Source: Escherichia phage ECML-4. From it: a stretch of DNA of 64,000 nt. The stretch lies in sequence record JX128257, one strand, 5' to 3'. Positions 7,604-43,678 of the stretch are shown in pieces. Each line of letters opens with the position of its first letter. The stretch's first letter is position 1. The translations under genes and the position numbers were made by a program. The notes beneath the pieces were generated by a model that worked only from the letters and a program-made list of their open reading frames with translations, made no database searches and was not told where the DNA came from.

Positions 7604-7650
7604 TAAATTAAGGGGAAGTATACCTTCCCCTTCTTCAATAAAATAAATTA

Positions 7651-12690: not shown

Positions 12691-12738
12691 GGTATTATCT
12701 CAATATGGGGTTAGGCGGCAATTATACCGCCATTTTCT

Positions 12739-13152
12739 TCAATAGAGGTCTTCGGAAAAGAGTTCACGGAAAGGAGTGTTCTTCAAACGAACTTGATTGG
12801 TTTGTCCAGCTTCACGGGCTACAATAGCCGCCTCTTCCCTAGACATCCATTGCCCATAGTTATCGATAAACCCTTGTTCACGCGTGCGGGTGTTTTCGAT
12901 AACACCTGCTTCCTTCAATCGTTTCAGTTGCGCATTCATTAATTTGTCGTGGTGACGGGCGCTTACAACGATGACATCACCATATCTGTTGGCAGCGGCC
13001 ACTACGCGGCGGTCAAATTTAGTTGGGTCTGGTATATCCCGAGCATATAGGGCGATATGGGTGTCGTCAACATCCCCTTTGACTTCAGAATATAACTGGC
13101 CACCATTAGGAGATCCAGTGGGTAAAGAACGAAAATAACCGAGTAATTTCAT
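12739..13152 (-). CDS. hypothetical protein
   Basis: 137 aa ORF. Confidence 0.4.
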   Translation of the reverse strand: MKLLGYFRSLPTGSPNGGQLYSEVKGDVDDTHIALYARDIPDPTKFDRRVVAAANRYGDVIVVSARHHDKLMNAQLKRLKEAGVIENTRTREQGFIDNYGQWMSREEAAIVAREAGQTNQVRLKNTPFRELFSEDLY

Positions 13153-22546: not shown

Positions 22547-25288
22547 TTATGCCCCGAGAATACGTTTTGAAATAGCCTTCACAAATCTAGTGGCATCTTC
22601 AATCGCATTATGCGCCGTTGGCTGATATTTTGACATCATGAATTTCACCAAACGATGACATTCAACTCGGTATCGGTTTTTGGCCTTTTGCTTTTGAGAT
22701 ATAGTGCTAGTGACCTTTATCTCATCAAATCCTTCAGCAGTTAATTTTTCATTCAATAAATCAACAACTTGAGTTAACTGGTTACAGGCGCGGAAAAATC
22801 TCGTAGTTGAGAAAGGCATTTCTATACGATAATGTAATTCCTCAACAGCCTTGCGGAAATAACCGTACCCCGATCCAGACGGGTTTCGTTTGGCCAGCAT
22901 ACGAACAACCTTCCATTCTTCTTCAGTGATTTGTTGTTTCGCATAACCGATGATTGCTTTTGCCCTGTGTTGATGATGAGCATAGCCATCCGTAACTTCT
23001 CCATGGGAATCAATCAACAGCTTGGCACCATAATCAATGCGATGAGACATGATGTTTATGCCCTTGCGAAGTTTCAGGAGTTTCTTAGATTCAAGCGCCT
23101 GAAATTCATCTTTATAATGCTCAAGCAACATATCAAACACTGCGTCAATGGGGATGAATACTTCTGGGAATTTCTTCATCATCGGAACAGATTTACGACG
23201 CGCAAGAACGATTGTTGGATGCGCTCCCAGCAAATCAAACATGTTTTCGTTTCCATTCTCGCCGAACTTCGTTCTTTCCATCGCTTCACGCAAATGTCCA
23301 GCCGTGGATTGTCGTAAGGTATTACCATGAATTTTATGGATACCTTCTCGGCCAGATACTTCGATATATACGATCTTTTTGCCTGAATCAATAATATCTG
23401 AAACGGTTTTTCCATCCAATTCATAAACGCTGTCGAAGTTAAATGAATTGTAATGGAAACTAAACATCCCAGGATCTTTTTCAACGGTCGGGCGAACATA
23501 TTCCATTTCATGCATGAAATAAACTTCATCCGGATTGAATAAATCGCCAAAAACCTCGATCAGTTTATCGGCAAAGACCAGGTAGTCCGGTGTTGTTTCT
23601 TGTACACCGATCCATGATTCAAAATAAGACTTCAATTCCTCATGGTTGGTGAATGATTCTTTATGTGCCGCCAGCTGATTCCGATTACTGAAATAATTTT
23701 CATTCGGTTTGACGACGATAACGACATTGAAGTTATTACGTGCTGTTTGTATCTTCAGGTTTCGAGCACGATTCGAGTTATCAATAATAACAGCAATTTT
23801 TGATTTAGATTTCAACCAATTTCCGACAGAGTTCACATAAATGCTGTCGTGTACTACACCGTCGTCGTGTACTTCAATTTCGTAAGGACTACCAATAGAC
23901 CGGAAAGGTGCATCCACAGAGTAATCGCGCACGACGTCCGGCGCTCCGATATAACGGAACGTGCCTTTGTAGAAACGGTTATCTGCAGGAAATTCTCGCT
24001 CCACTAATTTACGGAAACCGCTACCGAACATATCGGTCAATTGAGCCTTCTTCATATAAAGCATAAGAGGACCCATAGATTCGGCCTGGCGAAGTTCATA
24101 CATCTTCGCCTGCATAATATTGTCAGCCACATATTTGAACACTCGGTTCAGGCTTTCACGGGTGAACTCGTCATATGACAAGTCTTCACGTGATGGAGGA
24201 ACATTCAATTCTCCAAGTTCAAAGAATGTATAGGAACTCGGGAATTTCTCCAGCACCGAACGTATTTCAGAATCCAATTGCTCAAGATCTATCGGATAAG
24301 AAACCCCGCCCATAACAGCATAGTGGGTATTATCAGAATCAGACTTCGGCTGAATATACGTGTTGCCCACACGGTTTTCAAAATTGATGTCCTGCCAGCG
24401 GAAAGAATAACTGGCATTTTCAACCTTCGGGCGCATTGATGGGCGCATAACTCGACCCAGACGGACCAGTTCTTGTTCAAATGCAGTAAATCGCTGATTC
24501 TTTACAGGCACTTTAACAGTCAGACCATTGAACTCATCAGTGTCTTCTGGTTTCGGATCACGGGTGTCCAAATCCTTGGTGATCAGGTCCACAGTAGGAA
24601 TCCTGTCCGCATTCAGATACATAAGGAAGCGATACAGTTTACCTTCATAACGACTTTCTACAGTAAATGAGTCCGACACTGCAAATGGGGATTTAGAACC
24701 CAGCCCGAACGCGCCGATCTGCCCGTCGTCGTCCTCTTTGGTGCTATGGAAGAGTGTTGTGTACAAACCAGGTCCACGGATGATCTCGCCGTCCTCAGCG
24801 CGGAATACCAACACCCCATTGTAATAACCAGGCGTCCCAATAACAGCAGTGCTGTCAGGGATTTCATCTTCCTTCACAACAATGTTGCCTTCGACAAGCA
24901 CTTCATCTTCCCGCGCTGCGATAGGTTCACCGATAATCATTTCTAACGGAAGGCCAATCCCATAATCCTTGATTTCCAGCCATGGTTCCATAACATCAGG
25001 TAAATGGACCACAACGGGCGTCCCTTTGGGAGCAAGATGCTTGCTGTATCTTTGGGGCATAGGGGTAAGAGGGGCATAATGGGACGGCAACCAACGCTGT
25101 TGGCGATCACGCATATTATGCGAGTCTATACCGTTACATAACGTCTCACGCAAAGATGCGGCCTCTTTATATTTGTAGAGACTTGAGAACAATGTTTCAA
25201 ATAATTTATCCGTCATCTTGACATTAAATGTCTGTCCGACGATAGTGGAAGAAGAGCGCACGAAATGCTCAGACTTGCGCATTTTCAT
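22547..25288 (-). CDS. rIIA: rIIA-like protein with N-terminal GHKL ATPase domain
   Basis: GHKL N-box ETLCNGIDSH, G1 box KDYGIGL, G2 box GAFGLGSKS; 913 aa; adjacent rIIB candidate. Confidence 0.6.
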   Translation of the reverse strand: MKMRKSEHFVRSSSTIVGQTFNVKMTDKLFETLFSSLYKYKEAASLRETLCNGIDSHNMRDRQQRWLPSHYAPLTPMPQRYSKHLAPKGTPVVVHLPDVMEPWLEIKDYGIGLPLEMIIGEPIAAREDEVLVEGNIVVKEDEIPDSTAVIGTPGYYNGVLVFRAEDGEIIRGPGLYTTLFHSTKEDDDGQIGAFGLGSKSPFAVSDSFTVESRYEGKLYRFLMYLNADRIPTVDLITKDLDTRDPKPEDTDEFNGLTVKVPVKNQRFTAFEQELVRLGRVMRPSMRPKVENASYSFRWQDINFENRVGNTYIQPKSDSDNTHYAVMGGVSYPIDLEQLDSEIRSVLEKFPSSYTFFELGELNVPPSREDLSYDEFTRESLNRVFKYVADNIMQAKMYELRQAESMGPLMLYMKKAQLTDMFGSGFRKLVEREFPADNRFYKGTFRYIGAPDVVRDYSVDAPFRSIGSPYEIEVHDDGVVHDSIYVNSVGNWLKSKSKIAVIIDNSNRARNLKIQTARNNFNVVIVVKPNENYFSNRNQLAAHKESFTNHEELKSYFESWIGVQETTPDYLVFADKLIEVFGDLFNPDEVYFMHEMEYVRPTVEKDPGMFSFHYNSFNFDSVYELDGKTVSDIIDSGKKIVYIEVSGREGIHKIHGNTLRQSTAGHLREAMERTKFGENGNENMFDLLGAHPTIVLARRKSVPMMKKFPEVFIPIDAVFDMLLEHYKDEFQALESKKLLKLRKGINIMSHRIDYGAKLLIDSHGEVTDGYAHHQHRAKAIIGYAKQQITEEEWKVVRMLAKRNPSGSGYGYFRKAVEELHYRIEMPFSTTRFFRACNQLTQVVDLLNEKLTAEGFDEIKVTSTISQKQKAKNRYRVECHRLVKFMMSKYQPTAHNAIEDATRFVKAISKRILGA

Positions 25289-25364
25289 AGTATAGAATTC
25301 CTATTCAGTTTCAAAGGGAACACATTATTGGGGTATGGGTATGATACTAGCGGGGGACTCAATA

Positions 25365-25388
25365 GAAAAAAGCCTCCAAAAGGAGGCT
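25365..25388 (-). terminator. rho-independent terminator upstream of rIIA
   Basis: minus strand AGCCTCC-TTTT-GGAGGCT followed by TTTTTT. Confidence 0.6.
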
Positions 25389-25397
25389 TAATCAGGT

Positions 25398-25751
25398 TTA
25401 ACTCTGGTCTACATTTACAACGGCAGCGTTAAAGTTGAATGTCGGATGGGTAGCGCCTGGCTCTAACGTTTCTTCCAGATAACCCGCGATATTCCGCACC
25501 ACGGTTTTAGGCTCAGAACGTGAAGGCTTCGTTGCTCCAAGTTCAATGATACTGGAAGTAACTTGTTCGACTTGGGTGTGAGCCACAACAAAATGGTAAC
25601 GACTACCAAACGCCGCCACTTCAACTTCTGTAATTTCCAAACCACTCAATTCAGAGCTGCTCAACTGCTTCACATTCAGTTGTGAACGAAGGTGTTCCAC
25701 AATGTTGCTATAAACATATTGTGGCGTGATCAGCTGTTCAATAGAACTCAT
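25398..25751 (-). CDS. hypothetical protein
   Basis: 117 aa ORF; terminator hairpin downstream. Confidence 0.4.
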   Translation of the reverse strand: MSSIEQLITPQYVYSNIVEHLRSQLNVKQLSSSELSGLEITEVEVAAFGSRYHFVVAHTQVEQVTSSIIELGATKPSRSEPKTVVRNIAGYLEETLEPGATHPTFNFNAAVVNVDQS

Positions 25752-26038
25752 GACATATCCTCATTTCTTTGGGGGTTATTGTTACTTAACCGGACGACCT
25801 CTGCTCGAAGGAAAAGGATTTCATCGGCCATTATCTTTCCCTCTTCAAACATCACATGGCAACGTGATAATCTGGGTTCGCCTTCAGATAATGCGTGAAG
25901 ACGATATTCAGGGATGACATCATTTACGACGTTTCTTTTTGTTCTTTCCATGGATCTTGGCCTTTTTAGGACGACTAACGGAAGGACGGGCATGCCCAGG
26001 CTCCCCAGGGGTACAACCTTGGGCATAACGTTGGTCAT
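25748..26038 (-). CDS. hypothetical protein (frame and start uncertain)
   Basis: 96 aa ORF; a second frame (25920-26126) competes. Confidence 0.25.
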   Translation of the reverse strand: MTNVMPKVVPLGSLGMPVLPLVVLKRPRSMERTKRNVVNDVIPEYRLHALSEGEPRLSRCHVMFEEGKIMADEILFLRAEVVRLSNNNPQRNEDMS

Positions 26039-26118
26039 CCCAGAGGCGTCCTTTGTGAGACATATCTTCAGCCATCGCGGACAAGGCGAGGGTTGCTACA
26101 GCCGCAGCAGATAATGGT

Positions 26119-26565
26119 TTAGACATCTGTTTCTCCTTTTGCTGCATATGCCAGTGCTTTTACAATCATCACGGCCAATCCGATTGGGTCGCACGTACCT
26201 TCGAATTCTTGTTCTAAAATCTCACGTATTTCATCAGAAGATTGTACTTCGGAGCAGTTCTTGCTCTGTCGACGTTGTTCTTGCTCAACGAGGTCTTTGA
26301 ACAGAAGGTCTTTGAAAGAATACTCATCGAAGTTTTCCAGATACTGCTGGATACTTGGTTGTTTCGCATCCATCGTTCTACGCAGATTGCTGATAGTTGT
26401 ACTCGCCTGTTCGCGGTGTTTGTTCATAACGGAAAAGTTCACGGGTTTTCCCCAAGCGTTCGTCACTGTGTTGGAACATACTTGTCCGAAGAGATCTTGG
26501 AAGGCGTCATCCAGATGAATCAGCGCGGCGGCCAGTTCATCATAAGTTGGTTTTTGAGCAGTCAT
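26119..26565 (-). CDS. hypothetical protein
   Basis: 148 aa ORF. Confidence 0.4.
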   Translation of the reverse strand: MTAQKPTYDELAAALIHLDDAFQDLFGQVCSNTVTNAWGKPVNFSVMNKHREQASTTISNLRRTMDAKQPSIQQYLENFDEYSFKDLLFKDLVEQEQRRQSKNCSEVQSSDEIREILEQEFEGTCDPIGLAVMIVKALAYAAKGETDV

Positions 26566-26945
26566 TTTCGTTTATTCCTATTTTTAGATTTCTTGGCTTG
26601 ACGTTTATGCTGAGCGGCTCCATACAAGCGCGGAGGCTTTTGATAACGCTGTGAGGCAATTATATCCCTGTAGTCGGCTTCGGCTTCACAGCAAGAAACA
26701 TCCGTTCTTCGTAATTGCGCGACCGCTTGTGACACCAGCATTTTACGTTCGCTTTCTACCAGGTCATCACAAATTATCATGCGCTCGCCTGGTTCACAAC
26801 GACGTTTGGGAATGTCGTCAACACTGATGCATTCCACCTCAACGCCTTTCAATTTTTCTTGAAGGATGATGGCCATAGTACGAGCGCCCACCCCTCCTCC
26901 AATAATTGCAATCTTTCTTGGCTTGTCAGACATAATACATTCCAT
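26562..26945 (-). CDS. small protein with Rossmann-like dinucleotide-binding motif
   Basis: KIAIIGGGVGARTMAII (G-x-G-x2-G/A) near N-terminus; 127 aa with Lys/Arg-rich tail. Confidence 0.3.
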   Translation of the reverse strand: MECIMSDKPRKIAIIGGGVGARTMAIILQEKLKGVEVECISVDDIPKRRCEPGERMIICDDLVESERKMLVSQAVAQLRRTDVSCCEAEADYRDIIASQRYQKPPRLYGAAQHKRQAKKSKNRNKRK

Positions 26946-26953
26946 AAAAAAGA

Positions 26954-26994
26954 GGATAGAGCAATAATACCCTATCCCCCTTTATTGAAGAACG
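26954..26994 (-). terminator. terminator hairpin within a repeated intergenic element
   Basis: GGATAG...CTATCC hairpin plus shared 14-mer TTTATTGAAGAACG (plus-strand reading), also present at 29792-29805. Confidence 0.45.
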
Positions 26995-26995
26995 A

Positions 26996-27421
26996 TTAGT
27001 CTTTGGATTCTACTTTATCACCACGCAGATCCTGGACGGGTTTGCCATCCGGCGACATGATGTAGATGGTGTTAATTGTTTCAAACCAAGACAGTTCATC
27101 AACTCCTTCAGTGTATGGAGTTACCGGAACTGAAGTTTTGATATGATCACCAACGTTATTTGGGGCACCATCAGACTTCAGCACTGGCTCCAGGAAGGCG
27201 AAACGACCATTTGGATAAATCACCCCGCCTTTGAACATGCGAATCTTCTTGCGAGGGTTGTTAGCCTCACCAAGACACACCACCAGATGATGAATCATCT
27301 CAGGGCGGGTGAGCAACGTGTCGTCACGGATGATCCCCTGTTTGATAGCAGAGATCACCACTTCATCCAACAAAGCCTGTTGCTGTTCCAGAGTCAAAGA
27401 TTCAGTAAGTTTCACGCTCAT
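26996..27421 (-). CDS. hypothetical protein
   Basis: 141 aa ORF. Confidence 0.4.
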   Translation of the reverse strand: MSVKLTESLTLEQQQALLDEVVISAIKQGIIRDDTLLTRPEMIHHLVVCLGEANNPRKKIRMFKGGVIYPNGRFAFLEPVLKSDGAPNNVGDHIKTSVPVTPYTEGVDELSWFETINTIYIMSPDGKPVQDLRGDKVESKD

Positions 27422-27424
27422 GGT

Positions 27425-27994
27425 CTAACCTTTGAAATTAATTGGGTTCTGAACCCCAGAGTCAAACGCGGCCTGGGTACGGGTATCGCTCACCACCTGA
27501 CAGGTCTTTTCGAGATCGATGCGAGGGTATCCAAAGATGCCAGCAATGACAGATCCAGGGAACTGGCCGAGTTTGGTTTCATAGATAGCACACGCATCTA
27601 ATTTCTTTGTCTGGCTGATACGGAATTCATCACGTCCTGAACTGATGACCACCTGAATTTCTTTGTACAGGCTTGAATCAAACTGGATGTTCTGTTCCTG
27701 GATCCATTGCATAACCGCCTTTGAACCATCAGCACCATAACGACCCTGGAAAGTATCTTTGATCACTTCTTTCAGACCGTCTTTGTACAGGCCAGGTATC
27801 TGAGCCGTCTCTTGTACTTTGTTTGTATAGTTGCTCAGATGGTTTTCAGAATCTTTATTGAACTTTTTGACTTGCTGTTCAATACGATTGAAATCATTGA
27901 AATAACTGACGAAACTACCAACACCGATTACAACAAAAGCCAGAATCGCCAAACCGATGATCCAACCAATTGAAATACCTTTACGCTGCGACAT
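27425..27994 (-). CDS. LemA family membrane protein
   Basis: N-terminal TM helix; C-terminal YETKLGQFPGSVIAGIFGY matches the LemA Y-N-x-FPGS-x2-A-x2-FGF signature. Confidence 0.6.
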   Translation of the reverse strand: MSQRKGISIGWIIGLAILAFVVIGVGSFVSYFNDFNRIEQQVKKFNKDSENHLSNYTNKVQETAQIPGLYKDGLKEVIKDTFQGRYGADGSKAVMQWIQEQNIQFDSSLYKEIQVVISSGRDEFRISQTKKLDACAIYETKLGQFPGSVIAGIFGYPRIDLEKTCQVVSDTRTQAAFDSGVQNPINFKG

Positions 27995-28009
27995 CTTTAC
28001 TTCCTCTTG

Positions 28010-29119
28010 TTAAAACAAACGTTTGTAAGTGCGACCATTGTACTGCATATGGCCTAATATGAAAATTGCGGTAAACGGAACACAACCTAATAAAACGACG
28101 ATAATCACTTCCCATGTCTTGAGGTCACGCCATTTCAGATACTCCATTTCCTTCATTTCAACACGGTTATAGCCTTTGCTGATATTGACTGCAACTTCTT
28201 GGAATACTGATATCCCCATGGGTTTGCCAGTCAATGAAAGACCGTTTCGGGAATGAAGTTCCATGTTATTCATCCCATCAGCAAATGACGTGGATTTACC
28301 CCAATTGATTTTCATATCCTTCGATATGTCAGTAACCACAATGACATCGTTCTTTTTACCACCAGACCATGCATATAGCAGCCCCTGAAAATATTCCACA
28401 GGCTGGCCAGAAGTCACTACCCACACGATATTGACCTGACGTGATGCCCCCAATGTTTTCAAAGTGTTGTTCAGATAATCATTCCAATAATCAACGGGAA
28501 TATCCATCCCTGACATATTCAGAACACGAGTCACCCGATAATAATCATACACCCTTGGATATGACGGGATATGGTCTTTGAACTTCTCAGCGAATTGTTG
28601 GTCAGATTTGGAGAATAAAGAATCCTTGTTCCCTAGAACATAGTTCATATATGCATGTTCACGCGCTGCAGGTTCTCCGATTTTAACTTGCGCCCAACGC
28701 GGGGGCTCTGTAGTACCCTGACGATCAATACGGTCAATGCTCAGATCACCGACGGATGTTAATACGTCCCAATCAACGTCATAAGAGTGCTCATAGCACG
28801 TGCTGCAATGACGCGTTTGTGTACAAGATCGGTTATTTCCTGAACCAGAGCAAGAAGTTGTGTAATAGCACATACATTCATAAGAATGGCTACAACCCAC
28901 CTTATTTCGTTGCTTGTCAGTAACGTATCCATTCAAAATTTCAACATCTCCCGAACTACCCAGGGAAAATGCAGCGTATGCTCCCGCCTGGATAAGACAG
29001 GATAATACAACCACTATCGCAGTAGCAATTAGCGTTTCTTTTGGTTCATGGGTTTTGCGATGGTAAACCACGAACAATATGGCTAAAATAATAGGGACCA
29101 CAAACAGAAGGTAAATCAT
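28010..29119 (-). CDS. membrane protein (two N-terminal TM helices, Cys-rich ectodomain, C-terminal TM)
   Basis: 369 aa; hydrophobic helices at both termini; Cys cluster (CSHSYECMCYYTTSCSG...CTQTRHCSTC). Confidence 0.45.
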   Translation of the reverse strand: MIYLLFVVPIILAILFVVYHRKTHEPKETLIATAIVVVLSCLIQAGAYAAFSLGSSGDVEILNGYVTDKQRNKVGCSHSYECMCYYTTSCSGSGNNRSCTQTRHCSTCYEHSYDVDWDVLTSVGDLSIDRIDRQGTTEPPRWAQVKIGEPAAREHAYMNYVLGNKDSLFSKSDQQFAEKFKDHIPSYPRVYDYYRVTRVLNMSGMDIPVDYWNDYLNNTLKTLGASRQVNIVWVVTSGQPVEYFQGLLYAWSGGKKNDVIVVTDISKDMKINWGKSTSFADGMNNMELHSRNGLSLTGKPMGISVFQEVAVNISKGYNRVEMKEMEYLKWRDLKTWEVIIVVLLGCVPFTAIFILGHMQYNGRTYKRLF

Positions 29120-29502
29120 AACACACCATCCACGAGTTGTTCCTTCGTCATACCAAGAAGTTGATTTTTATGACCTGATTCAGCTCCATTTTTCAACAAC
29201 AGATCCCAACGTTCTTCATGATACTGTGGAGTCATTGCATCGTCAAAAGAAACATGGTGGCGATGCATAATTGTTGCAACGGTATGAAGAACGATTGCTG
29301 TCGCTCTTTTTAAAGCACGTGTATCAGTGATATGGTCTTCATATTCAATACCCATCAAATCGAGTTCTTTCCGAATATATGCAATAGACAAATCACCTTC
29401 AGAATGCAATTTAACAATAGTCGCTTTCTTAGGATGTAACACGCCGTCTGTTTCTTTCATGAACAGATCGTACAAATATTGTTTGTATTCGGGGCGCATC
29501 AT
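29116..29502 (-). CDS. hypothetical protein
   Basis: 128 aa ORF, 4-nt overlaps. Confidence 0.4.
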   Translation of the reverse strand: MMRPEYKQYLYDLFMKETDGVLHPKKATIVKLHSEGDLSIAYIRKELDLMGIEYEDHITDTRALKRATAIVLHTVATIMHRHHVSFDDAMTPQYHEERWDLLLKNGAESGHKNQLLGMTKEQLVDGVL

Positions 29503-29738
29503 CTCGTAATCCCTCCGGCACAGATAATATTCAGTTCACCGCGACGGAAACCGCCTTGCCCATCGTCCAACTTAGTCAGAGGTGTATGTGCATCTCGAAC
29601 TTTCTGAGCGAACTCTTCCGACACCACCAGATGACCCATCAGAGGAGTCTTTTCTTGTTTTGGGGTGGATTCAAAATAGTCACCGAACGTCGCTTCCATA
29701 TCCAGCACAGACATATCTTCAATTCGTTGCATTGCCAT
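29499..29738 (-). CDS. hypothetical protein
   Basis: 79 aa; ATG at 29738 preceded by AAGGAAATACATC, the same initiation context as gene 38210. Confidence 0.4.
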   Translation of the reverse strand: MAMQRIEDMSVLDMEATFGDYFESTPKQEKTPLMGHLVVSEEFAQKVRDAHTPLTKLDDGQGGFRRGELNIICAGGITR

Positions 29739-29819
29739 GATGTATTTCCTTGTAAAAGAAAGGGGAACGGGCTAATAATAACCCATTCCCCTTTATTGAA
29801 GAACGCAATCGCAGTCAGA

Positions 29820-29996
29820 TTACTTTTTCTTCAGCTCTTCCAGCTTGGCTTCAATTTGGTCCAGAATCTCTTTACCTTTCTGGACGATGGCTTCACCGTC
29901 TTGCGCGTGTTTACGAAAAACCAGAGCGCCAGCAATGAAACCAACAACCACGCCTGGGAGCGCATACACCAACAGATCTTGTAACATGATTTATAT
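29820..29996 (-). CDS. small single-pass membrane protein (58 aa; not in ORF track)
   Basis: hand translation MLQDLLVYALPGVVVGFIAGALVFRKHAQDGEAIVQKGKEILDQIEAKLEELKKK; GAGGA SD 8 nt upstream of ATG; terminator downstream. Confidence 0.4.
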
Positions 29997-30025
29997 CCTC
30001 ACTTTTATAAGCAAGGATATTTATA

Positions 30026-31261
30026 TCATCGTTTCAACAAAGACATGAGGTTTACACTGGTCGACTTCGGATTGTCATCTATCTTCCGGACGGGCATTTT
30101 CAGATTAGTGTAAACCTCAGATGGTTCCCAACGCGTACCCTGCTGCAGGTGCCAAATATGAAGAGGAACACCCGTCTCAAAGAACACAGGCATCTTCCAC
30201 TTCTGGACGCCAGGAACGTGCCCTGCAGGAGCTTTTTCGCATAACAAGGTATCTGGTAGCCAGAGGGAACGGGCTTCCCATAATGCCTTACAGGAGTACT
30301 CAGGCCAGATGCGTTCCATGTAGTCGATCTCATCCCAAGTACGCTCAGCATCCCACCCGATGTAACGAGTGTTTTTCAGACGGAAGAATTTCTTAAGCCA
30401 ACAAGCACCGGAAGTCTCAAAGTTCAAACGATTGATGAACGTGATGTGACCAAACTCGGCGACACAATCTTTGAATGCCTGTTCAAGATCAGCCTCAAGG
30501 ATGTCGCATTCTTCATCGGTGATAGGACAGCCGTTGATCTTTTTCTTTCCGTGCTTGGTCACCCAGTCGTCACGGTTTGACAAGAATGCCGCGCCGTTGC
30601 GGTTGGACTCACTACCATCACGGTCACGCAACATGAACCCAGGGACGTCGATCTGATACATGTTGCCGAATACCATGTTCAGGGCTTCCAGGAAGTTCCA
30701 GGCGCTCAGGCGACCGAAGTATTTCCATCCCATAGCCGTGTCCCATAGCTTAACGAATTGATCACTTTGCAGTTTAGTCTCCAACAACGGACGGAAAGCA
30801 TCCATCTGAGTACGACCAGCTAGCCAATCAATGTAGGACTGAACACACGGGATCATCTTCGATTTGCGATAGCGGCAATCAGTATCGAATCGCATACGCT
30901 CGAAGTTCAGGTTATACCAATCACAGAATCGCTTGAACTCTTGTGGTGACTGAGGCGGTACAGGAAACTCACTATAAATCGTCCATGGGCCAATCCCATT
31001 ATAACAACAGCCCCAAAGGAACGCCATCCAGATCTTGCGCTCGATCTTCTCAAGCTGTGTAATGCCTTCAGTGACTTCAATCGCATAATCCATCAGACGA
31101 ACTTGTTGGTTGTGTTCTTCCGTATACGACAGCGCCTCCACCCATGCTTTGAGCAGATACATCCGATTCTCTGGCTTACGATAATCGATTGACAAATCAA
31201 TTGGGTACTTCCATTCAGCCGGAGGCGTATAACCTGTCGGCATTTTAGATAGATGCGTCAT
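30026..31261 (-). CDS. hypothetical enzyme-sized protein (candidate DNA-modification enzyme)
   Basis: 411 aa, Trp/Cys-rich, no motif recognised; lies beside the P-loop kinase and HAD genes. Confidence 0.3.
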   Translation of the reverse strand: MTHLSKMPTGYTPPAEWKYPIDLSIDYRKPENRMYLLKAWVEALSYTEEHNQQVRLMDYAIEVTEGITQLEKIERKIWMAFLWGCCYNGIGPWTIYSEFPVPPQSPQEFKRFCDWYNLNFERMRFDTDCRYRKSKMIPCVQSYIDWLAGRTQMDAFRPLLETKLQSDQFVKLWDTAMGWKYFGRLSAWNFLEALNMVFGNMYQIDVPGFMLRDRDGSESNRNGAAFLSNRDDWVTKHGKKKINGCPITDEECDILEADLEQAFKDCVAEFGHITFINRLNFETSGACWLKKFFRLKNTRYIGWDAERTWDEIDYMERIWPEYSCKALWEARSLWLPDTLLCEKAPAGHVPGVQKWKMPVFFETGVPLHIWHLQQGTRWEPSEVYTNLKMPVRKIDDNPKSTSVNLMSLLKR

Positions 31262-31595
31262 CCTTCACCTCGGCTTCGAGTTGGATATCTTCAGGGTTTA
31301 AAACGGGCTGGCCCAAAGACCAAATTGGAAGGAACCGACGGTCATTGGATACTACCCAGATTTGCTTGGCGGTTTTCGTTTTTTCAGAAATATAATGCTG
31401 GGCATTAACCTGAGTCCGTGCCAGCCCAATTTGCCGCCATGCACCGAAATCTTTAGAAGATGGATTGGTGTTCAGCTGGAATTGGGGAATGATTTTATTC
31501 TGTTCCGGATAATATCGGACAGCGTTAATCATATTGGCATCGCCACGATAGTCAACAGCAATAGCAATGGCATTGCGTGGAATAAGAATTTTCAT
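31245..31595 (-). CDS. hypothetical protein
   Basis: start moved to the internal Met to abut the upstream stop. Confidence 0.35.
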   Translation of the reverse strand: MKILIPRNAIAIAVDYRGDANMINAVRYYPEQNKIIPQFQLNTNPSSKDFGAWRQIGLARTQVNAQHYISEKTKTAKQIWVVSNDRRFLPIWSLGQPVLNPEDIQLEAEVKDDASI

Positions 31596-31596
31596 T

Positions 31597-31800
31597 TTAA
31601 TTCCTTTTGAAACTTTCAATTATGTTGTAAACGAACGGCGTTAATAAAGCAACACCGCCCGAATAATATAACGCGTAAACATTCAATATTTCGGTTGAGT
31701 CTAATTCAACGATGCCCAAATATTTCATAACACCGACAAGCATAGCTGAAAAGCACATCACCAGACCGACGAACACAAAATATTTAGACATCTTTTTCAT
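31597..31800 (-). CDS. small membrane protein
   Basis: 67 aa, two hydrophobic helices. Confidence 0.35.
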   Translation of the reverse strand: MKKMSKYFVFVGLVMCFSAMLVGVMKYLGIVELDSTEILNVYALYYSGGVALLTPFVYNIIESFKRN

Positions 31801-31803
31801 TAT

Positions 31804-32718
31804 CTACGCCTTACGCATTAGCCCCAGAAGGGACACGGATGAGGTCTTTGGTTCTTCCTTGGCGACGGCCTTGTTTTTAGTTTTGGATGCCTTCTGCGGC
31901 TTCTCAGGCACTCTGTGAGCCAAAGGATCCTGACCGCCGACTTCACGCGTCATCGGATTGGTTTCGCAATAGCCGTAGAAGTCTTTCGACATCAGATTGT
32001 TAGCGCGGCAAACTGTGCCAAGCTGATGATAGATAGCATTACCCACCACCCACAACGGGGCGTCGAACGGCAACATAGCCAATTCGCTATCATTCCCAGT
32101 CTTGAATTCTTGGGTGTTCGTAGCCGTTTGGTGGTACAAAACGTCTTGCCCACTGTAATCATCCACGGCAACATTCCAGCCAAGCGCCAGCATTTCAGCC
32201 TTGGACTTCTCGAACTCCTTGGAGTAAGATTCGTTGCGCGACCAGCCGGAATCCCCCGCTTCTTTACCAGAGCGTCCACGGATGCGGGCATCGTACTGAT
32301 AGCGGTCTGGATATGCAAAGTACAGCAGCGCCAAAGAATCAATCGGATAGTTCTTGAACATCCATTCAGGACGCCACTTGTCCGACAGCATCAGGGGTTC
32401 GCCCTCACACACCAGGGTATATCCCTGAGCCAGCCAACCCTTGACGAGGTCGCGAGCAATATCCCCAGAGCCTGTGGCAGCATGAATGGCGTCCATAGAG
32501 GTCCAAGACGCCAGGCCGGATTTATTGGACACTGTGTATTGGCCGACGAAGATTAACTTCAGCTCTTCAAATTTCAGGCCGAAGGGGCGCGTCTTATCCC
32601 CAACAGTGTACGACAATTCAGTCGGCTTCAGCTTAGTGCGGAGCCACTCGATGAACTGTACGACACGAGTGCCTTTACCCGTGCCGCTGGTTCCTTTGAT
32701 TACGATGATCTTTGCCAT
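31804..32718 (-). CDS. P-loop nucleotide kinase-like protein
   Basis: N-terminal IVIKGTSGTGKGT, an NMP-kinase-style G-x-G-K-G-T P-loop; 304 aa. Confidence 0.5.
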   Translation of the reverse strand: MAKIIVIKGTSGTGKGTRVVQFIEWLRTKLKPTELSYTVGDKTRPFGLKFEELKLIFVGQYTVSNKSGLASWTSMDAIHAATGSGDIARDLVKGWLAQGYTLVCEGEPLMLSDKWRPEWMFKNYPIDSLALLYFAYPDRYQYDARIRGRSGKEAGDSGWSRNESYSKEFEKSKAEMLALGWNVAVDDYSGQDVLYHQTATNTQEFKTGNDSELAMLPFDAPLWVVGNAIYHQLGTVCRANNLMSKDFYGYCETNPMTREVGGQDPLAHRVPEKPQKASKTKNKAVAKEEPKTSSVSLLGLMRKA

Positions 32719-33023
32719 TATGCAGCATCCTCAATGCGCCAACTCACTCCACCCAACCAAGGTGCCCAAAACACGGCAACTTGCGGATGACCATTCTCAA
32801 CAAACTTCACTTTATACTGGTCATCAAAGTTATAGAAAATTTCGTCGTCATCAGGTGCCATACCGTTTTCAATCAGAACTCGTTTTAATTCCAACGCTGC
32901 GCCAACGGAAGTTGGTGGATTCTGATTACGGATGAAGTTGTTTACATGGATAATGATACCATCCATATCACTGTCACCGGAACGCTTGTCAGGGCTTTCT
33001 ACAACTTTATTTTGTTCTTGCAC
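32718..33023 (-). CDS. hypothetical protein
   Basis: 101 aa ORF, 1-nt overlap. Confidence 0.35.
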   Translation of the reverse strand: MQEQNKVVESPDKRSGDSDMDGIIIHVNNFIRNQNPPTSVGAALELKRVLIENGMAPDDDEIFYNFDDQYKVKFVENGHPQVAVFWAPWLGGVSWRIEDAA

Positions 33024-33032
33024 GATGTGCTC

Positions 33033-33875
33033 CTATCGGACATATTGATAATGAGAAACCAGGCGATTCACCACTTCATCGAGGTTACGATTTAAGAAGT
33101 CAAAGTGGTTTTGGCCTTCTACATGCTTAATATAAAGCATATCCTCGCAATTCGAAAGATCCAGTTTTTCATAATTGCCCTGAGGGACGAAGATGACGAA
33201 GATGTTATTCAGGGCACACGGCTCAACATACTTCGGATTGTCGTCGATCAGGACATCGCCAGCAAGCAGATGCTTTTCATCCGTGCTCACGAACCCATTA
33301 ATCAACGATTCAAAGTGATGGTATATGAACTGACGCTTGCTGCGTTCGTGTTCCGGTTCGCATTTTGTAACTGCCACCATTTCCACTTGCTCAAACTTCT
33401 GAAGGAGAGCGGCCTTTAAATTCGTAAGGAATTCAACAGCCCCTGGCAGTGGTGACATTCTGGAATACAGATCAGGCATACGCCACCAATCCATCGGATC
33501 ACGTCCTGTTGGCGAATCCATCCACTGACCAGCAACGAATACACGGCGCGTTAACCAGGCCGGATGCGCGCGTTCACGCATGAGGATCGCCAGATCACCA
33601 GCGTGTGACATATAACACTCTTTGGTGATTGGTTGAAATTCAGATGGGTAGTCGTGACATCCCATATTTTCCGCAGCGGCTTTAGAATTAGAAATATTGA
33701 ACCATTCAACCCACGGCGATAGGGAATCAACCAGAGTCAAATCCACATCCACCAGAACGCGATATAACCCGCCAATTTTAGAACATGCGTCATACAGACC
33801 AACGTGATTATTCATCAGATTTCTCCACATTGTCATAACCCGTTGCGGTGCATTGTTCTTCAGTGCAATCGGCAT
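33033..33875 (-). CDS. HAD-superfamily hydrolase (5'(3')-deoxyribonucleotidase-like)
   Basis: HAD motif I in LVDVDLTLVDS (DxDxT), late DVLIDD; start probably an internal Met because the ORF 5' end overlaps the upstream gene. Confidence 0.5.
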   Translation of the reverse strand: MPIALKNNAPQRVMTMWRNLMNNHVGLYDACSKIGGLYRVLVDVDLTLVDSLSPWVEWFNISNSKAAAENMGCHDYPSEFQPITKECYMSHAGDLAILMRERAHPAWLTRRVFVAGQWMDSPTGRDPMDWWRMPDLYSRMSPLPGAVEFLTNLKAALLQKFEQVEMVAVTKCEPEHERSKRQFIYHHFESLINGFVSTDEKHLLAGDVLIDDNPKYVEPCALNNIFVIFVPQGNYEKLDLSNCEDMLYIKHVEGQNHFDFLNRNLDEVVNRLVSHYQYVR

Positions 33876-34170
33876 ACAGAACCACAGAAGATTCCTTCAC
33901 GTAAGTGGTACAGTGATAGGTTTCATCTTCCTGGATGGAATCATCATAATTGCAAACAGTTTGCAACGGACCAGGAGTGGTGTTGTCCAAAGCTGCATGT
34001 GCCTTGATGGTGTCTTCCATCTTATTCACCGCTTGCTGATTGGTGAACGTCGGCGCATCGAGGTCAACAGTAGACGCAACGTCCAGAAGGGTAGAGCATG
34101 CAGTGGTAGAGAAAGCCAGAGCACACACCAGAAGAATCTTATTGAGTTTCATAACAATACCTGTTGTCAA
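33808..34170 (-). CDS. putative secreted/lipoprotein
   Basis: signal-peptide-like MKLNKILLVCALAFSTTACSTLL with Cys after the hydrophobic core; several further Cys. Confidence 0.4.
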   Translation of the reverse strand: MTTGIVMKLNKILLVCALAFSTTACSTLLDVASTVDLDAPTFTNQQAVNKMEDTIKAHAALDNTTPGPLQTVCNYDDSIQEDETYHCTTYVKESSVVLYADCTEEQCTATGYDNVEKSDE

Positions 34171-34212
34171 AGGGATAACAGGGGGAATTATATCCCCCTT
34201 TGTTTTATTGAA

Positions 34213-37209
34213 TCAACCTTTCTTGCCCATCATGGACAACAGATTAACTCGACGTTTGTGAGACCAACCAACCACGTCTAGAATAGACTGAATCGGCTCT
34301 ATGAAGGTCTTTTCAAACGTGGTGTGGTAATCTACCCACTTATCCAGCCCCAACTCCGGAGGGAGGAAGTCAGGGAAGGCTATGCGGTCGTTCCCCACAG
34401 GGTTCCCAGGTTTCAGGTTAATGATTTTAACCTTATCGCCAGATTCTATCGGCGGGAGACCGAGGTCTTCATGCTTGTCTATCAGCTTGTTGTACATAAT
34501 ACAAGCCTTGGCAGCAAAGTGTGTGCCACTGATATAATTTCCGTTGCCGTCTAACCACTTCTCAATATCACTAACGCCAGAGGCTTGAGCAATATCATCC
34601 ACGGTTAATTCCATATATTCCTTCTTATAACCCGCGATCAATTCCTGAACTTCAGCCTCCGTCCCCAGCAGAACTTTCTCATAGCATTTAACCAGACGCT
34701 CACGACACCATTCCGGCGTTGTAGATTTACGCGCTTCCAGACCTTTGAATTTTATCTTTGGCTTCTCATACTTGATGCCTTCGCTATCGTATACTGCCAT
34801 GCAATACATCTTCTTGGCTCGCCATACAGCAGACGATGCGATGACCTCACGTTCCCAGACCATGCGCTGCTCAAACCCGTTCATGGTATTACACAACAAC
34901 TGCGCCCATTCACTGGTTTTTGGCTGGTAATTCTCTTTGATCCATTGGTCAATGTTATCAACGAGTTTGTGATGATCCTTTTCTTCAGGCCACAATTGCT
35001 TGACCAGACGTTCAATGCAAATGTAGTTGGAGTCAGTATCACCCGCGATAACAAAATCCTGACCAGTAGTGCCGCAAAGTTTGTTCAGATAATCATCGGT
35101 GTGGCGTTTGTTCCATTTGTTGATCAGCTGGCCGGAAGTGGTGATTGCTTCAGCGATGTTGATGTTGAAGTATTCTTTAAACCAGACGTTGGAGATTGCG
35201 CCATAACCTGCGTTCATCAAGATCTTCAGACCTTGTTGTAACGTGTCTTGAGCAACCCCCAGATCTTCCCACTTGTGCATGACTTCAGTCAGGTGATCAA
35301 GATCGATGTGCTTGTGTTCTTCATACCATTCAGGATCGTAGAAACGAGACTTCATGGCGGATTCAAGGTGGAAATCACCTTTAGACATTTCCTTACACCA
35401 ACCAGCCCATTGCTCATACTTCAGGCCAGTTGCTTTCTCTCCTTTACGGTCAGCGTATATGCCTCGCATAATTTCGGAAAGGAAGGACATCTTCTCATTA
35501 CTGAAGAACTGAACGTTCGGGGTAAACGAAACGTTATATCGGCGTAGTGTTTCAAAATGGAATTCGCCCAGCGCGACCAATTCATCAACAACTTGTATGC
35601 GTTCATCAATAGCACGCTGCAACTTGTCGTGAAGATTTTTGAGATGACGACGTTTATTCATCGGCGTTGTCATATCATTCATCGCTTTGGTCAATTCCTC
35701 ACACATGGCCTCAATAATATCACGGCGGGTGTGCTTATCAGAAACGATAGTCTCTGGACCAAGGTTGTATTGCTGTATGATGTGGGGATACAGGGAGTTT
35801 AAGTCCTCAGAGAAGACCCAGAAATATATCCCTGGTGCAACCTCCATGACATATGCGCCTTCAAAATCTGTTGGCCCATCATAGACGCGCTGGATTTTCG
35901 GGACAATCCCCTTCTCATAAAGACGATAATAACACATCGCCAGCCACGGCGCTACAGTGCCGAGACCGTCTTCATAGTTGGATTTAGTGCGATAAGCCAA
36001 TACAAACATCAGCTGTATCAAACGCAGTTTTTGTTCTAAGCGCCACACCAGCTTGACGTCTTTGATACCATATCGCGTATGCTTGCAATAATCATTGAAA
36101 TAAAGGTCATACAATGATTTGCTTTCACTATAATCCAACTTCTTCTCACCGAGTTCACAATAAGCGATCCAGTCCAGTGAGTATTTTTCACGGGTGGTGT
36201 AAGTGTGTTTCTTGTACACTTGCATGTAGTCCATCATTGGACAACCCACAAACTGATAAGACGTGACGTCGCCTTTACGGTCTTTGATGAAACGTTTCTT
36301 CAGTTTACCCCAAGGACTGAGACGTTGGGCTTCAGATTCACCAAGAACCTGCGTAATTCGTTCAACCAAATAGGGGCTATCGAACGTTTCAATGTTCCAC
36401 CCAGTCCAACCGTCAAATTGACGCTGCGACCAGTAATCCAAGAAGGCGCGAAGCAGATCTTGTTCCGTCGTATATTCTTTATATTCAACCTCAAGACCGC
36501 CGACTTCTTCATCATTGGGGTCATATTTGAATTTATGGCGATCCTTGGAACACGGCATGCCCCAGACATAGAATTTATTGGTATTCATATCTTGGAGCTG
36601 TATCAGCGTAATAGGGAACGCCGCATTCATGTTCTGTGTGATTTTACCGTTACTGTCAATTATAGGGAATTGGTCAGTCACGTTGTTGGAAATAAAGGAA
36701 CCAGGGAAATGCTCCCGAACGAAATCATGGTTGGCCAGTACTTGCTTATGGAAACGACGAACCCGCGCCTCGCTGCCTTTAAACGTGTGAGATTCAATCG
36801 TTGCGTGTGGGAATGGACCTTTAGTCATTTCTCCGTCACGCCAACCAGCCGAGAACACTTCGATATCCACGTTGGCGATGTGGATATTTGAATAATCAGG
36901 TGTGATCATCCCAGGAAAACTATGGGCGATGAATTGATATGCATAATCCGTTTGTCCATACACCGCAGCCCCTTCGACCTCCTTGTACTCCTCAAGATAG
37001 TTGTCAGCGTCGCGCATTGATGCAAACTTTTTAGACACCAACGGTTCGTTGAGGAGGCCAATCTTTTCAACTTTGGAATAATCAGCTGTGGGTAAATACA
37101 AGGTGGGTTCGAATTTCTTACGCAACATGCGGCGATTGCCGTTGTCGTCTGCGATACGAATCAGAAGGTCGTTACCCTGTCGGGCAACGTTCGTATAGAA
37201 AACAGTCAT
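34213..37209 (-). CDS. family B DNA polymerase (T4 gp43-like)
   Basis: Exo I NVDIEVF, motif A DLNSLYPHI, motif C AGDTDS; start set to ATG 37209 (MTVFYTN) preceded by GGAGA SD. Confidence 0.9.
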   Translation of the reverse strand: MTVFYTNVARQGNDLLIRIADDNGNRRMLRKKFEPTLYLPTADYSKVEKIGLLNEPLVSKKFASMRDADNYLEEYKEVEGAAVYGQTDYAYQFIAHSFPGMITPDYSNIHIANVDIEVFSAGWRDGEMTKGPFPHATIESHTFKGSEARVRRFHKQVLANHDFVREHFPGSFISNNVTDQFPIIDSNGKITQNMNAAFPITLIQLQDMNTNKFYVWGMPCSKDRHKFKYDPNDEEVGGLEVEYKEYTTEQDLLRAFLDYWSQRQFDGWTGWNIETFDSPYLVERITQVLGESEAQRLSPWGKLKKRFIKDRKGDVTSYQFVGCPMMDYMQVYKKHTYTTREKYSLDWIAYCELGEKKLDYSESKSLYDLYFNDYCKHTRYGIKDVKLVWRLEQKLRLIQLMFVLAYRTKSNYEDGLGTVAPWLAMCYYRLYEKGIVPKIQRVYDGPTDFEGAYVMEVAPGIYFWVFSEDLNSLYPHIIQQYNLGPETIVSDKHTRRDIIEAMCEELTKAMNDMTTPMNKRRHLKNLHDKLQRAIDERIQVVDELVALGEFHFETLRRYNVSFTPNVQFFSNEKMSFLSEIMRGIYADRKGEKATGLKYEQWAGWCKEMSKGDFHLESAMKSRFYDPEWYEEHKHIDLDHLTEVMHKWEDLGVAQDTLQQGLKILMNAGYGAISNVWFKEYFNINIAEAITTSGQLINKWNKRHTDDYLNKLCGTTGQDFVIAGDTDSNYICIERLVKQLWPEEKDHHKLVDNIDQWIKENYQPKTSEWAQLLCNTMNGFEQRMVWEREVIASSAVWRAKKMYCMAVYDSEGIKYEKPKIKFKGLEARKSTTPEWCRERLVKCYEKVLLGTEAEVQELIAGYKKEYMELTVDDIAQASGVSDIEKWLDGNGNYISGTHFAAKACIMYNKLIDKHEDLGLPPIESGDKVKIINLKPGNPVGNDRIAFPDFLPPELGLDKWVDYHTTFEKTFIEPIQSILDVVGWSHKRRVNLLSMMGKKG

Positions 37210-37270
37210 TGTTTGTCTCCGGTTAACCGTGCCGTCAGCACGTCCCCGTAATTTAACCGAGGAACGTTCA

Positions 37271-37861
37271 ATGACCAAGGAGTTTAAAATGGCAATCCCC
37301 TTTGTGAGCATGATTCCAGGGGCGCTAAAGCAACTCTGGAATCTTGGGACTGATTTGGTGCAATATAAGCGGGAAATTGTTCAGGCTAAACACGATGTTA
37401 AACTGGAGGCAATAAAGTCTTCTTCAGAATGGGAACTTTCTAAGATTACCGAAGTCGGCGGATCTTGGAAAGATGAATTCTGGACAATCGTTTTGGCTGT
37501 TCCCGCTATCCTTGTTATGATCGCTCCGGTTGTGGAACTTCTAATGTTCCCCACCGAGTATCATAAAGGGGATTTCATCAAAGCAGTAATTGATGGTATG
37601 CAAGCCCTTGAAACAGCGCCTGATTGGTATACTGCTTCGCTATTGACAGCAATTAGTGCATCATTCGGTATCAAGGGGTACAACCATTACAAAAGCAATA
37701 GCCGGAAGGCGCAAGCTGTGGATGCTCTCAAACAGTTTGGGGTCAAAGTGGTTAACAAAGATCCCACTGTTGTTACTCAGTCGGGTTCTCCCGATCTTGA
37801 GTCTGCTCCCCCAGCTGGGTCTACTGCGACCTCTGGTGCGTGGCCTGATCTGAAGAAATAA
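37271..37861 (+). CDS. membrane protein
   Basis: start at ATG 37271 (GAGGA SD); TM helix FWTIVLAVPAILVMIAPVVELLMF; terminator at 37868. Confidence 0.45.
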   Translation: MTKEFKMAIPFVSMIPGALKQLWNLGTDLVQYKREIVQAKHDVKLEAIKSSSEWELSKITEVGGSWKDEFWTIVLAVPAILVMIAPVVELLMFPTEYHKGDFIKAVIDGMQALETAPDWYTASLLTAISASFGIKGYNHYKSNSRKAQAVDALKQFGVKVVNKDPTVVTQSGSPDLESAPPAGSTATSGAWPDLKK

Positions 37862-38114: not shown

Positions 38115-38131
38115 AATATTTATTGAATAAA

Positions 38132-38160
38132 GTTTACTTCTTCAATAACTGGCGTATACT
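38132..38160 (+). promoter_or_regulatory. candidate sigma70-type early promoter
   Basis: GTTTAC (38132-38137), 17-bp spacer, TATACT (38155-38160); about 50 nt upstream of ATG 38210. Confidence 0.3.
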
Positions 38161-38209
38161 TCTAATTGTAGTACGAACAAACAACAATCTGAAGAGAAGG
38201 AAATACATC

Positions 38210-43675: not shown

Positions 43676-43678
43676 ATT

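Follow-up and report, generated by a model that had tools for sequence, protein, structure and literature searches.

Two intergenic elements in a 64,000-nucleotide (nt) stretch of the genome of Escherichia phage ECML-4 (sequence record JX128257; hereafter, the window), which we call site 1 and site 2, share an identical 14-mer and a G/C-rich hairpin. With moderate confidence, we propose that both are paralogous cassettes on the minus strand, each of which would combine an intercistronic terminator with a promoter in the manner of the promoter-early stem-loops (PeSLs) of T4-type phages. By megablast, the window comes from a Kuttervirus (Vi01-like, Ackermannviridae) and is ~99% identical to the Salmonella phages Hercules_SET and SJ2; SJ2 positions 52477-116476 are collinear with it. 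The minus strand carries all genes from ~5.9 to 37.2 kb.

The 14-mer TTTATTGAAGAACG is found exactly, on the plus strand, at 26981-26994 and 29792-29805, as an earlier note on this DNA had stated, and the wider similarity that the note described is borne out by a repeat finder, which returned a 32-nt direct repeat of 91% identity (26963-26994 and 29774-29805; family D9). When up to two mismatches are allowed, the 14-mer has six matches, as compared to 0.63 expected, and its 12-mer core TTCTTCAATAAA (the box) has eight matches with up to one mismatch, as compared to 0.73 expected; in neither case did any of 100 shuffles reach the observed number. Thus, the motif is more frequent than base composition predicts. 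Both sites lie between the stop codon of one minus-strand gene and the start codon of the next, again as proposed, and on that strand the order at each is stop codon, (CG)TTCTTCAATAAA, 16-bp G/C hairpin, U-run, ribosome-binding site and ATG. The earlier description of a hairpin followed by the 14-mer was therefore right about the presence of a hairpin at both sites but not about the order, because the gene strand has CGTTCTTCAATAAA first, and then the hairpin and the U-run. The functional strand of the cassette is the minus strand, opposite to the direction in which it had first been read. An antisense function on the plus strand was considered and rejected: the hairpins are much weaker on that strand, and TTTATTGAAGAAC is followed there by coding sequence of low conservation, in which neither a -35 nor a -10 is conserved.

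Conservation was assessed in 16 IMG/VR loci that have both sites at the same gene junctions. These loci represent Kuttervirus, Limestonevirus and Taipeivirus, with 66-97% identity to the window across 9 kb; an IMG/VR scan for TTTACTTCTTCAATAA gave mostly chance matches in unrelated contigs, along with five useful Ackermannviridae contigs. Both sites are kept in every locus examined from the three genera, and Miltonvirus keeps site 2, with compensatory changes in the stem. The box of site 1 is unchanged in 16 of 16 related loci, with variable bases just upstream (the site reads TCCTTCAATAAA in phage SenALZ1). The conserved block starts exactly at TTCTTCAATAAA, and the bases immediately 5' of it differ by lineage. 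In 45-nt windows compared across the six most distant loci, the identity is 0.90 at site 1 (98th percentile) and 0.86 at site 2 (95th percentile), with a regional mean of 0.60. The windows that score above both sites fall in the coding region of a DNA-transferase gene or in neighboring genes, and an ordinary terminator upstream of rIIA (25365-25395) has an identity of 0.60 (48th percentile). We take conservation this high to mark both sites as functional, not as unique. Concerted evolution between the copies was considered and rejected, because both copies resemble their orthologs in other genera more than they resemble one another; thus, the duplication is old and predates the genera, and no ongoing homogenization is seen.

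That the similarity arose by chance, or is a neutral leftover of duplication without function, has nothing in its favor beyond the A/T richness of intergenic DNA. It is contradicted by the shuffle tests and the conservation percentiles, and by the finding that both copies are nearly unchanged while the flanking genes have only ~66% DNA identity between genera; we regard it as close to impossible. Because the pair occurs far above chance, is conserved among related phages and carries terminator annotations in GenBank, the earlier suggestion of a reused regulatory cassette stands.

The gene strand folds with a predicted energy of -22.9 kcal/mol (z -5.7) at site 1 and -27.8 kcal/mol (z -4.9) at site 2, versus -8.8 and -18.3, respectively, on the plus strand, where the folds are weaker because four G.U pairs at site 1 and two at site 2 become C.A mismatches. 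Of 13 natural variants, 12 fold more stably on the sense strand, the exception being phage maane, and all tested site 1 variants fit this pattern. Variation in the stems is mostly from G.U to G-C. In Miltonvirus (Serratia phage Kevin) the inner stem of site 2 has a largely different sequence, and RNAfold pairs all 16 of its 16 positions, three of them as G.U. Pairing at site 2 was judged from per-sequence folds, since the MAFFT alignment misplaced a 1-nt register shift in Taipeivirus. The G.U to G-C changes and the fully paired, divergent Miltonvirus stem also point to RNA structure. On the transcribed strand a U-rich tract directly follows each G/C-rich hairpin, as in an intrinsic terminator, and both hairpins are annotated as gene-strand terminators in three independent records (OR122688.1, Menlow MG428990.1 and LIMEstone1 HE600015.1). 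An Rfam search of 25000-35000 returned only sub-threshold, terminator-like noise (scores of 26.9 and 24.1, where the gathering scores are 40 and 55.8, respectively). A predicted role as terminator or attenuator on the gene strand is well supported by the sequence evidence. In phage maane (IMGVR_UViG_2974516482, locus L006, 2502-2531), the site 2 hairpin is inverted in place with both flanks unchanged; it is the reverse complement of the reference with one change, so that G.U becomes a C.A mismatch and the loop hexamer is reversed.

The hairpin and U-run directly after stop codons, the strand-specific stability and the agreement of three annotation teams would all be explained if the two sites were plain intrinsic terminators or attenuators, a pair of paralogous hairpins that punctuate a long minus-strand operon. 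The box would then be an A-tract or upstream context kept by descent and weak selection, and the TATTAT hexamer atop each hairpin would be an accident of an A/T-rich top. We consider this account possible, although several observations fit it poorly. The nine unpaired bases TTCTTCAAT show the same strict conservation as the stem, in contrast to the variable bases directly ahead of them, and the ordinary terminator nearby drifts freely. All 16 loci have the same TATTAT at site 1, and the LIMEstone1 record marks it as 'minus_10_signal, putative promoter' inside its annotated terminator. Four of five lineages retain, exactly 13 nt after the CAATA of site 2, a -10-like hexamer with A as its second and T as its sixth base, despite changes in stem and loop; in Taipeivirus, a G lost at the base of the stem is offset by a C gained near the loop. 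When CAATA or TATTG followed by TAT(A/C/T)(A/C)T was counted at spacings (N) of 6-21 nt, a sharp peak appeared at N=13, with 12 matches in SJ2, as compared to ~3 at each other spacing, and 10 in the Taipeivirus phage cp21. Nine of the 12 SJ2 matches are intergenic, lying 25-40 nt upstream of a start codon where one is visible, and rIIA and DNA ligase are among the genes downstream of such matches. A hairpin is entirely missing from a few of these sites (for example, 25341-25364 and cp21 136836), which is difficult to reconcile with terminators alone.

The loops themselves argue in the same direction. Among the 20 hexamers of three A and three T, TATAAT predominates in the loops of G/C hairpins that lie 18-47 nt ahead of gene starts: it was counted 12 times in two genomes, its reverse complement not once and the others between zero and four times each. 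TATTAT occurs in seven hairpin loops upstream of gene starts. Several hairpins with TATAAT in the loop, such as those at 12700-12717 and SJ2 47032, are not terminators, because they lack a U-run. From these regularities of spacing, orientation and position, we infer that the cassettes carry an overlapping promoter.

A TAT(A/T)AT or TATACT atop a G/C hairpin is common to sites 1 and 2, to the elements at 34187-34216, 12721-12744 and 7617-7640, and to several SJ2 elements, and the hexamers of this class lie 28-36 nt before a start codon and exactly 13 nt after CAATA or its reverse complement TATTG. The element at 34187-34216 is conserved in Taipeivirus, and Miltonvirus keeps its TATAAT in the loop of a different stem. 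The earlier note had placed the core of the repeat near 7634 and 38139 as well. Both matches are real, but neither is the same element: at 7631-7642 on the plus strand, TTCTTCAATAAA adjoins a different hairpin and is inverted relative to the local genes, whereas at 38138-38149 on the plus strand, TTCTTCAATAAC lies inside the spacer of a sigma70-type promoter (TTTACT, 16 nt, TATACT). Two other arrangements were observed along with this class. Upstream of rIIA (25289-25397, minus strand), a tetraloop terminator, AAGCCTCC TTTT GGAGGCTT, is followed by TATTG, 13 nt and TATCAT; the sequence of the terminator drifts between genera, and Limestonevirus and Taipeivirus retain ATTG, 13 nt, TATCAT. In front of the DNA ligase gene (SJ2 locus L005, 47032-47085; also cp21 51349), TATTG, 13 nt and TATAAT are found inside a hairpin whose 3' arm holds the GGAG ribosome-binding site of that gene, which would be free only in transcripts begun at the loop hexamer.

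Two T4 promoter types were tried at the cassettes and rejected. TTCTTCA resembles the MotA box TGCTTCA, but it lies at the wrong distance (16 nt) from the loop hexamer, and neither MotA nor AsiA has been reported in Vi01-like phages (PMC3184105). As for a T4-type late promoter, AATAAAGG matches TATAAATA at only five of eight positions; the only exact copy of this consensus in the window lies at 30018-30025 (minus strand), just upstream of the 55-amino acid (aa) membrane-protein gene and ~200 nt from site 2. LIMEstone1 marks the orthologous TAAATA as a putative late promoter. A hairpin at this position, ATATCCT...AGGATAT (29990-30020), would cover the ribosome-binding site of the 55-aa gene in read-through transcripts, not in those started at TATAAATA, an arrangement also used by the T4 genes e and soc.

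In the composite terminator/promoter reading that we prefer, each site would act at two levels. As mRNA, the 16-bp hairpin and U-run would serve incoming upstream transcripts as a factor-independent terminator or attenuator and as a stabilizer of 3' ends; at site 2, these transcripts would include those of the 55-aa gene, made from its own late-type promoter. As DNA, the same sequence would carry a promoter, with TATTAT atop the hairpin as the -10 and the box as an upstream element, CAATA being centered 16 bp before the first base of the hexamer, or roughly -28 to -30 from the start site. Transcription would restart ~7 nt past the hexamer, inside the 3' arm. Because the box and the 5' arm would be missing from the new transcript, it could not form the hairpin, and the ribosome-binding site would be free.

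A different role for the box, at the level of RNA, seems improbable to us. Here UUCUU/UUCA of the box would pair with AAGGA/UGGA of the ribosome-binding site in read-through transcripts, lengthening the hairpin, and so limit or couple translation of the next gene; alternatively, the box would be an endonuclease site, where cleavage in its unpaired, A/U-rich sequence leaves a protective 5' hairpin. A helix between box and ribosome-binding site does appear in the minimum-energy folds of both sites and of three other site 1 lineages, site 1 retains its UGGA in different genera, and hairpins clearly enclose the ribosome-binding site at SJ2 47032 and at 29990-30020 of the window. The T4 genes e, soc and 49 follow this logic of a hairpin that covers the ribosome-binding site. 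On the other hand, the helix has only 4-5 bp, including a wobble pair, and does not appear in the centroid structures; any run of pyrimidines could pair with such a site, and the box, which never varies, provides no covariation. Moreover, RNA pairing leaves unexplained the presence of the box in promoter spacers and, inverted, at 7617 and 12721.

The same occurrences as DNA speak against a nut-like antitermination site, in which the boxA-like CGUUCUUCAAUAAA and the hairpin would load a host or phage factor onto RNA polymerase. By hand comparison, the Kuttervirus 14-mer matches what we take to be the consensus of rrn boxA (UGCUCUUUAACAA) at 9 of 13 positions and that of lambda boxA at 8 of 12. 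The two copies per genome lie on the transcribed strand, and antitermination has been suggested as possibly important in ViI-like phages by Kutter et al. (PMC3184105). However, the leading CG, which supplies the G/C of the boxA core, is found only in Kuttervirus, with AA, AG or AT elsewhere; in place of a short boxB there is a terminator-like stem of 16 bp and a U-run; and Rfam gave no match. A lambda-type nut site, with a conserved boxA core GCUCUUUA and a short boxB, was thus not found beyond the partial match in Kuttervirus, and we judge this explanation very improbable.

Outside the cassettes, TTCTTCAATAA(A/C) sits in the spacer of a family of sigma70-type promoters of the form TTTAC, TTCTTCAATAAC, 5 nt, TATA(C/A)T, to which the match near 38139 belongs; the 38119-38160 region is 95% identical to its counterpart in Taipeivirus cp21. 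SJ2 has eight intergenic copies of this promoter, eight of eight on the plus strand, and they are conserved in Taipeivirus. More fully written, the family reads TTTAC, T(TC)TTCAATAA, 5-6 nt, TATA(A/C)T, with the palindrome TTTATTGAATAAA before it; downstream lie a conserved 5' leader and the ribosome-binding region AAGGAA(A/C)TA(C/T)ATC ATG. The family is a good candidate for the early promoters missed by Kutter et al. (2011). That study was unable to identify the early and middle promoters of ViI-like phages and reported no equivalent of MotA or AsiA (PMC3184105). One could imagine, tentatively and against our own expectation, that the box and the loop hexamer form a non-canonical (middle-type) promoter class of the Ackermannviridae, read by a phage factor that plays the part of MotA/AsiA. 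In this class, TTCAATAA or the inverse sequence TTATTGAA would be the -30 element, followed after 13 bp by a TATAAT-like -10, usually atop a G/C hairpin, and formation of the hairpin would couple termination of incoming transcription to re-initiation. Because the box is 6 bp closer to the -10 in the TTTACT promoters, a single box-binding factor could switch these early promoters off and the cassette promoters on.

Recombination between the two sites can be read from sequence records of genome-reduced mutants of Salmonella phage selz (SenALZ1, 154,811 bp). The block between the sites, gp078-gp083 in the wild type, is absent from both OL964747.1 (selz_8t2) and MZ375358.1 (selz_497L). The mutant junction consists of the upstream flank of site 2 (...GTAATCTGACTGCGATTG), then CGTTCTTCAATAAAGGGG, and then the hairpin of site 1 (GATAGGG...); because wild-type site 1 has TCCTTC, the crossover must lie within ~14 nt of identity. 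An unplanned loss of a large fragment, 'genes 78-83', is listed in the publication on these phages, where the repeat is not mentioned (PMC9825161). Thus, the block is dispensable and the repeats are usable as recombination substrates. As direct repeats 2.8 kb apart, the copies are substrates for the phage recombination system, and a crossover within the shared box removes the dispensable genes in between, as it has in these records. In many Kutterviruses, the 79-aa gene is also separated from the site 2 hairpin by a 192-nt open reading frame (ORF) that has a ribosome-binding site of its own and is inserted between the positions corresponding to 29739 and 29751; it is present in loci L007, L010-L014, L016 and L021 and as gene 206 of phage Guerrero, and is absent from the window. 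Because the insertion point directly follows the site 2 hairpin, this insertion or deletion exactly adjoins the cassette.

Several points weigh against the composite reading. The site TATTAT matches the -10 consensus at five of six positions, but TTCTTC, at the -35 position with 17-bp spacing, matches TTGACA at only two of six, and neither hexamer is preceded by a TGn extended -10; such a poor -35, and the ease with which A/T-only loops hold TAnnnT by chance, are what terminators without promoters would show. The peak at N=13 was counted in the same genomes from which the hypothesis was drawn, and several of the matches counted are related by orthology or paralogy. The box of the canonical promoters is 6 bp nearer to the -10 than that of the cassette, so one fixed geometry cannot explain every box. 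Site 1 is absent from Miltonvirus, and the maane inversion removes the T at position 6 of the site 2 hexamer in the N=13 register. Other regulatory intergenic regions are equally or more conserved (for example, 38115-38209 at 95%), so conservation is not unique to the two sites. The two deletion mutants may come from one ancestor and were obtained under Cas9 selection. Finally, a literature search for Ackermannviridae transcriptome, transcription start site or Term-seq papers found none, and thus no transcript 5' or 3' ends for any member of the family.

PeSLs consist of an A/T-rich stretch, a sigma70-type promoter, a terminating stem-loop of the polyG...polyC type, and a ribosome-binding site with ATG (PMC2839356, PMC4122927). 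They are repeated in the T4-type phages RB49/phi1, T4/PST and KVP40/nt-1 (Arbiol et al. 2010, PMC2839356; Comeau et al. 2014, PMC4122927), and neighboring PeSLs recombine, within the stem-loop or next to it, to yield deletions and mini-circles (PMC2839356, PMC4122927). The cassettes resemble them in lying between co-directional ORFs and ending in a ribosome-binding site and start codon, in their A/T-rich 5' region (here TTCTTCAATAAA), and in a stable stem-loop of a G-run and a C-run with a U-run, from which termination is predicted. As with PeSLs, recombination between copies deletes the ORFs in between (OL964747.1 and MZ375358.1, under Cas9 selection), and small-ORF insertions or deletions adjoin the elements, in this case one ORF directly beside site 2. 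The differences concern order, sequence and setting. The -10-like hexamer lies inside the stem-loop, whereas in a PeSL the stem-loop is upstream of the -35 and the promoter (Comeau 2014); this canonical order is found elsewhere, at 25289-25397 of the window and at 18371 of SJ2 locus L005. The -35 of the cassettes is poor, and their upstream element is a fixed box that is also found inverted. PeSLs are many and lie in hyperplastic regions of Straboviridae genomes; here the host family is the Ackermannviridae, and two near-identical copies occupy deeply conserved positions, accompanied by ~10 looser hairpin-loop -10 elements per genome. Promoter and terminator activity have been measured for PeSLs, whereas here both are predicted from sequence.

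Three other known systems share parts of this design. Like intrinsic terminators, the sites have a G/C stem-loop and U-run directly after a stop codon, strand-specific G.U pairs and independent annotator predictions; they differ in that the 9-nt unpaired box is conserved as strictly as the stem and that the A/T-only top holds a -10-like hexamer. Because the start codon comes within ~15-20 nt, there is no room for a separate promoter of the downstream genes. In the T4 genes e, soc, 49 and I-TevI, the promoter lies inside a hairpin, and only transcripts started there are translatable. The cassettes have in common with these genes a promoter hexamer within a hairpin that read-through RNA would fold and internally started RNA could not; however, the T4 hairpin covers the ribosome-binding site and holds a gp55 late promoter, whereas here that site is outside the main stem and the hexamer is sigma70-like. 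A box centered near -30, ~11-13 bp before the -10, without a usable -35, recalls the T4 middle promoters, but the box is TTCAATAA or TTATTGAA rather than TGCTT, and here either orientation would appear to work.

Site 1 is flanked by the 141-aa gene (26996-27421) and a DUF7231 gene, and site 2 by the 55-aa membrane-protein gene (29820-29987) and the 79-aa gene (29499-29738). The 55-aa gene is directly preceded by a gene for an amino acid:DNA transferase of the thymidine hypermodification pathway. A Pfam search of the five bracketed genes gave no confident family and no function. In Taipeivirus, the DUF7231 gene has the second ATG only. The 21-nt start region of the 79-aa gene, AAGGAAATACATCATGGCAAT, recurs before the gene at 38211. 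Coordinates of the elements and their parts are collected in Table 1.

Table 1. Positions of the two cassettes, their parts and related elements (window coordinates unless SJ2 loci are named)
Feature	Position	Strand	Remarks
Site 1 14-mer, gene strand CGTTCTTCAATAAA	26981..26994	-	box TTCTTCAATAAA at 26981-26992; 1 nt after TAA of 141-aa gene
Site 1 hairpin	26948..26983	-	16-bp stem, 4 G.U pairs, 4-nt apical loop
Site 1 loop hexamer TATTAT, -10-like	26964..26969	-	atop hairpin; 13 nt after CAATA, 17 nt after TTCTTC, 30 nt before ATG 26933
Site 1 U-run TTTTTT	26946..26951	-	
GGAA ribosome-binding site and likely true ATG of DUF7231 gene	26931..26943	-	ATG at 26933-26931
Site 2 14-mer	29792..29805	-	box at 29792-29803; 14 nt after TAA of 55-aa membrane-protein gene
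Site 2 hairpin	29759..29794	-	16-bp stem, 2 G.U pairs
Site 2 loop hexamer TATTAT	29775..29780	-	atop hairpin; same spacing from box as site 1
Site 2 U-run TTTCTTTT	29754..29761	-	
Ribosome-binding region AAGGAAATACATC and ATG of 79-aa gene	29736..29751	-	
Five-gene block between both elements	26996..29738	-	79, 128, 369, 189 and 141 aa; orthologous to SenALZ1 gp078-083
Related element after DNA polymerase gene	34187..34216	-	TTGATT, 18 nt, TATAAT in loop of AGGGGGA/TCCCCCT; CAATA 13 nt upstream
Related element, inverted box	12721..12744	-	TATTG, 13 nt, TATAAT in loop of GGCGG/CCGCC
Related element, inverted box	7617..7640	-	TATTGAAGAA, then TATACT in loop of GGGGAAG/CTTCCCC; match near 7634
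Sigma70-type promoter TTTACT, 16 nt, TATACT	38119..38160	+	TTCTTCAATAAC in spacer, palindrome TTTATTGAATAAA just upstream; match near 38139
Box-spacer promoter family in SJ2	L005 1774, 3643, 18395, 24624, 32104, 45096; L004 34826		

Other signals were noted elsewhere in the window. The motif CTAAATACCCC occurs four times (52081-52091, 55309-55319 and 57844-57854 on the plus strand, 40512-40522 on the minus strand), as compared to ~0.03 expected by a rough estimate from base composition. At least three copies are followed by the hairpin ATACCCC...GGGGTAT, and the three plus-strand copies lie upstream of tailspike or structural genes; the motif is a candidate late-promoter motif of the Ackermannviridae. 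Two further repeat families, D1 and D2 (43597-46216), fall within a tRNA cluster (Ser, Ile, Asn and Met according to the SJ2 annotation) and are most likely tRNA genes, unrelated to the cassette. Two plus-strand segments, 55625-55750 and 60983-61108, are 74-76% identical, 5358 nt apart and inside neighboring tailspike genes, and probably represent a shared N-terminal attachment module of tailspikes. The 79-nt divergent region between the DNA polymerase gene (minus strand) and the next plus-strand gene (37208-37286) is 86% conserved against Taipeivirus, with no recognizable sigma70, box or late motif.

The cassettes belong to what appears to be a family-wide set of ~10 hairpins per genome, each with a -10-like loop hexamer at a fixed distance from a short box, and this set is a concrete candidate for the means by which the long minus-strand operon for replication and nucleotide metabolism is transcribed and punctuated. 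For Vi01-like phages, which are used in biocontrol and engineering, the repeats are a place where deletions can arise naturally: when they recombine, genes 78-83 (SenALZ1 numbering) can drop out and leave a viable phage. If the composite reading is true, the PeSL idea of promoter/terminator cassettes that double as recombination linkers would extend beyond the Straboviridae.

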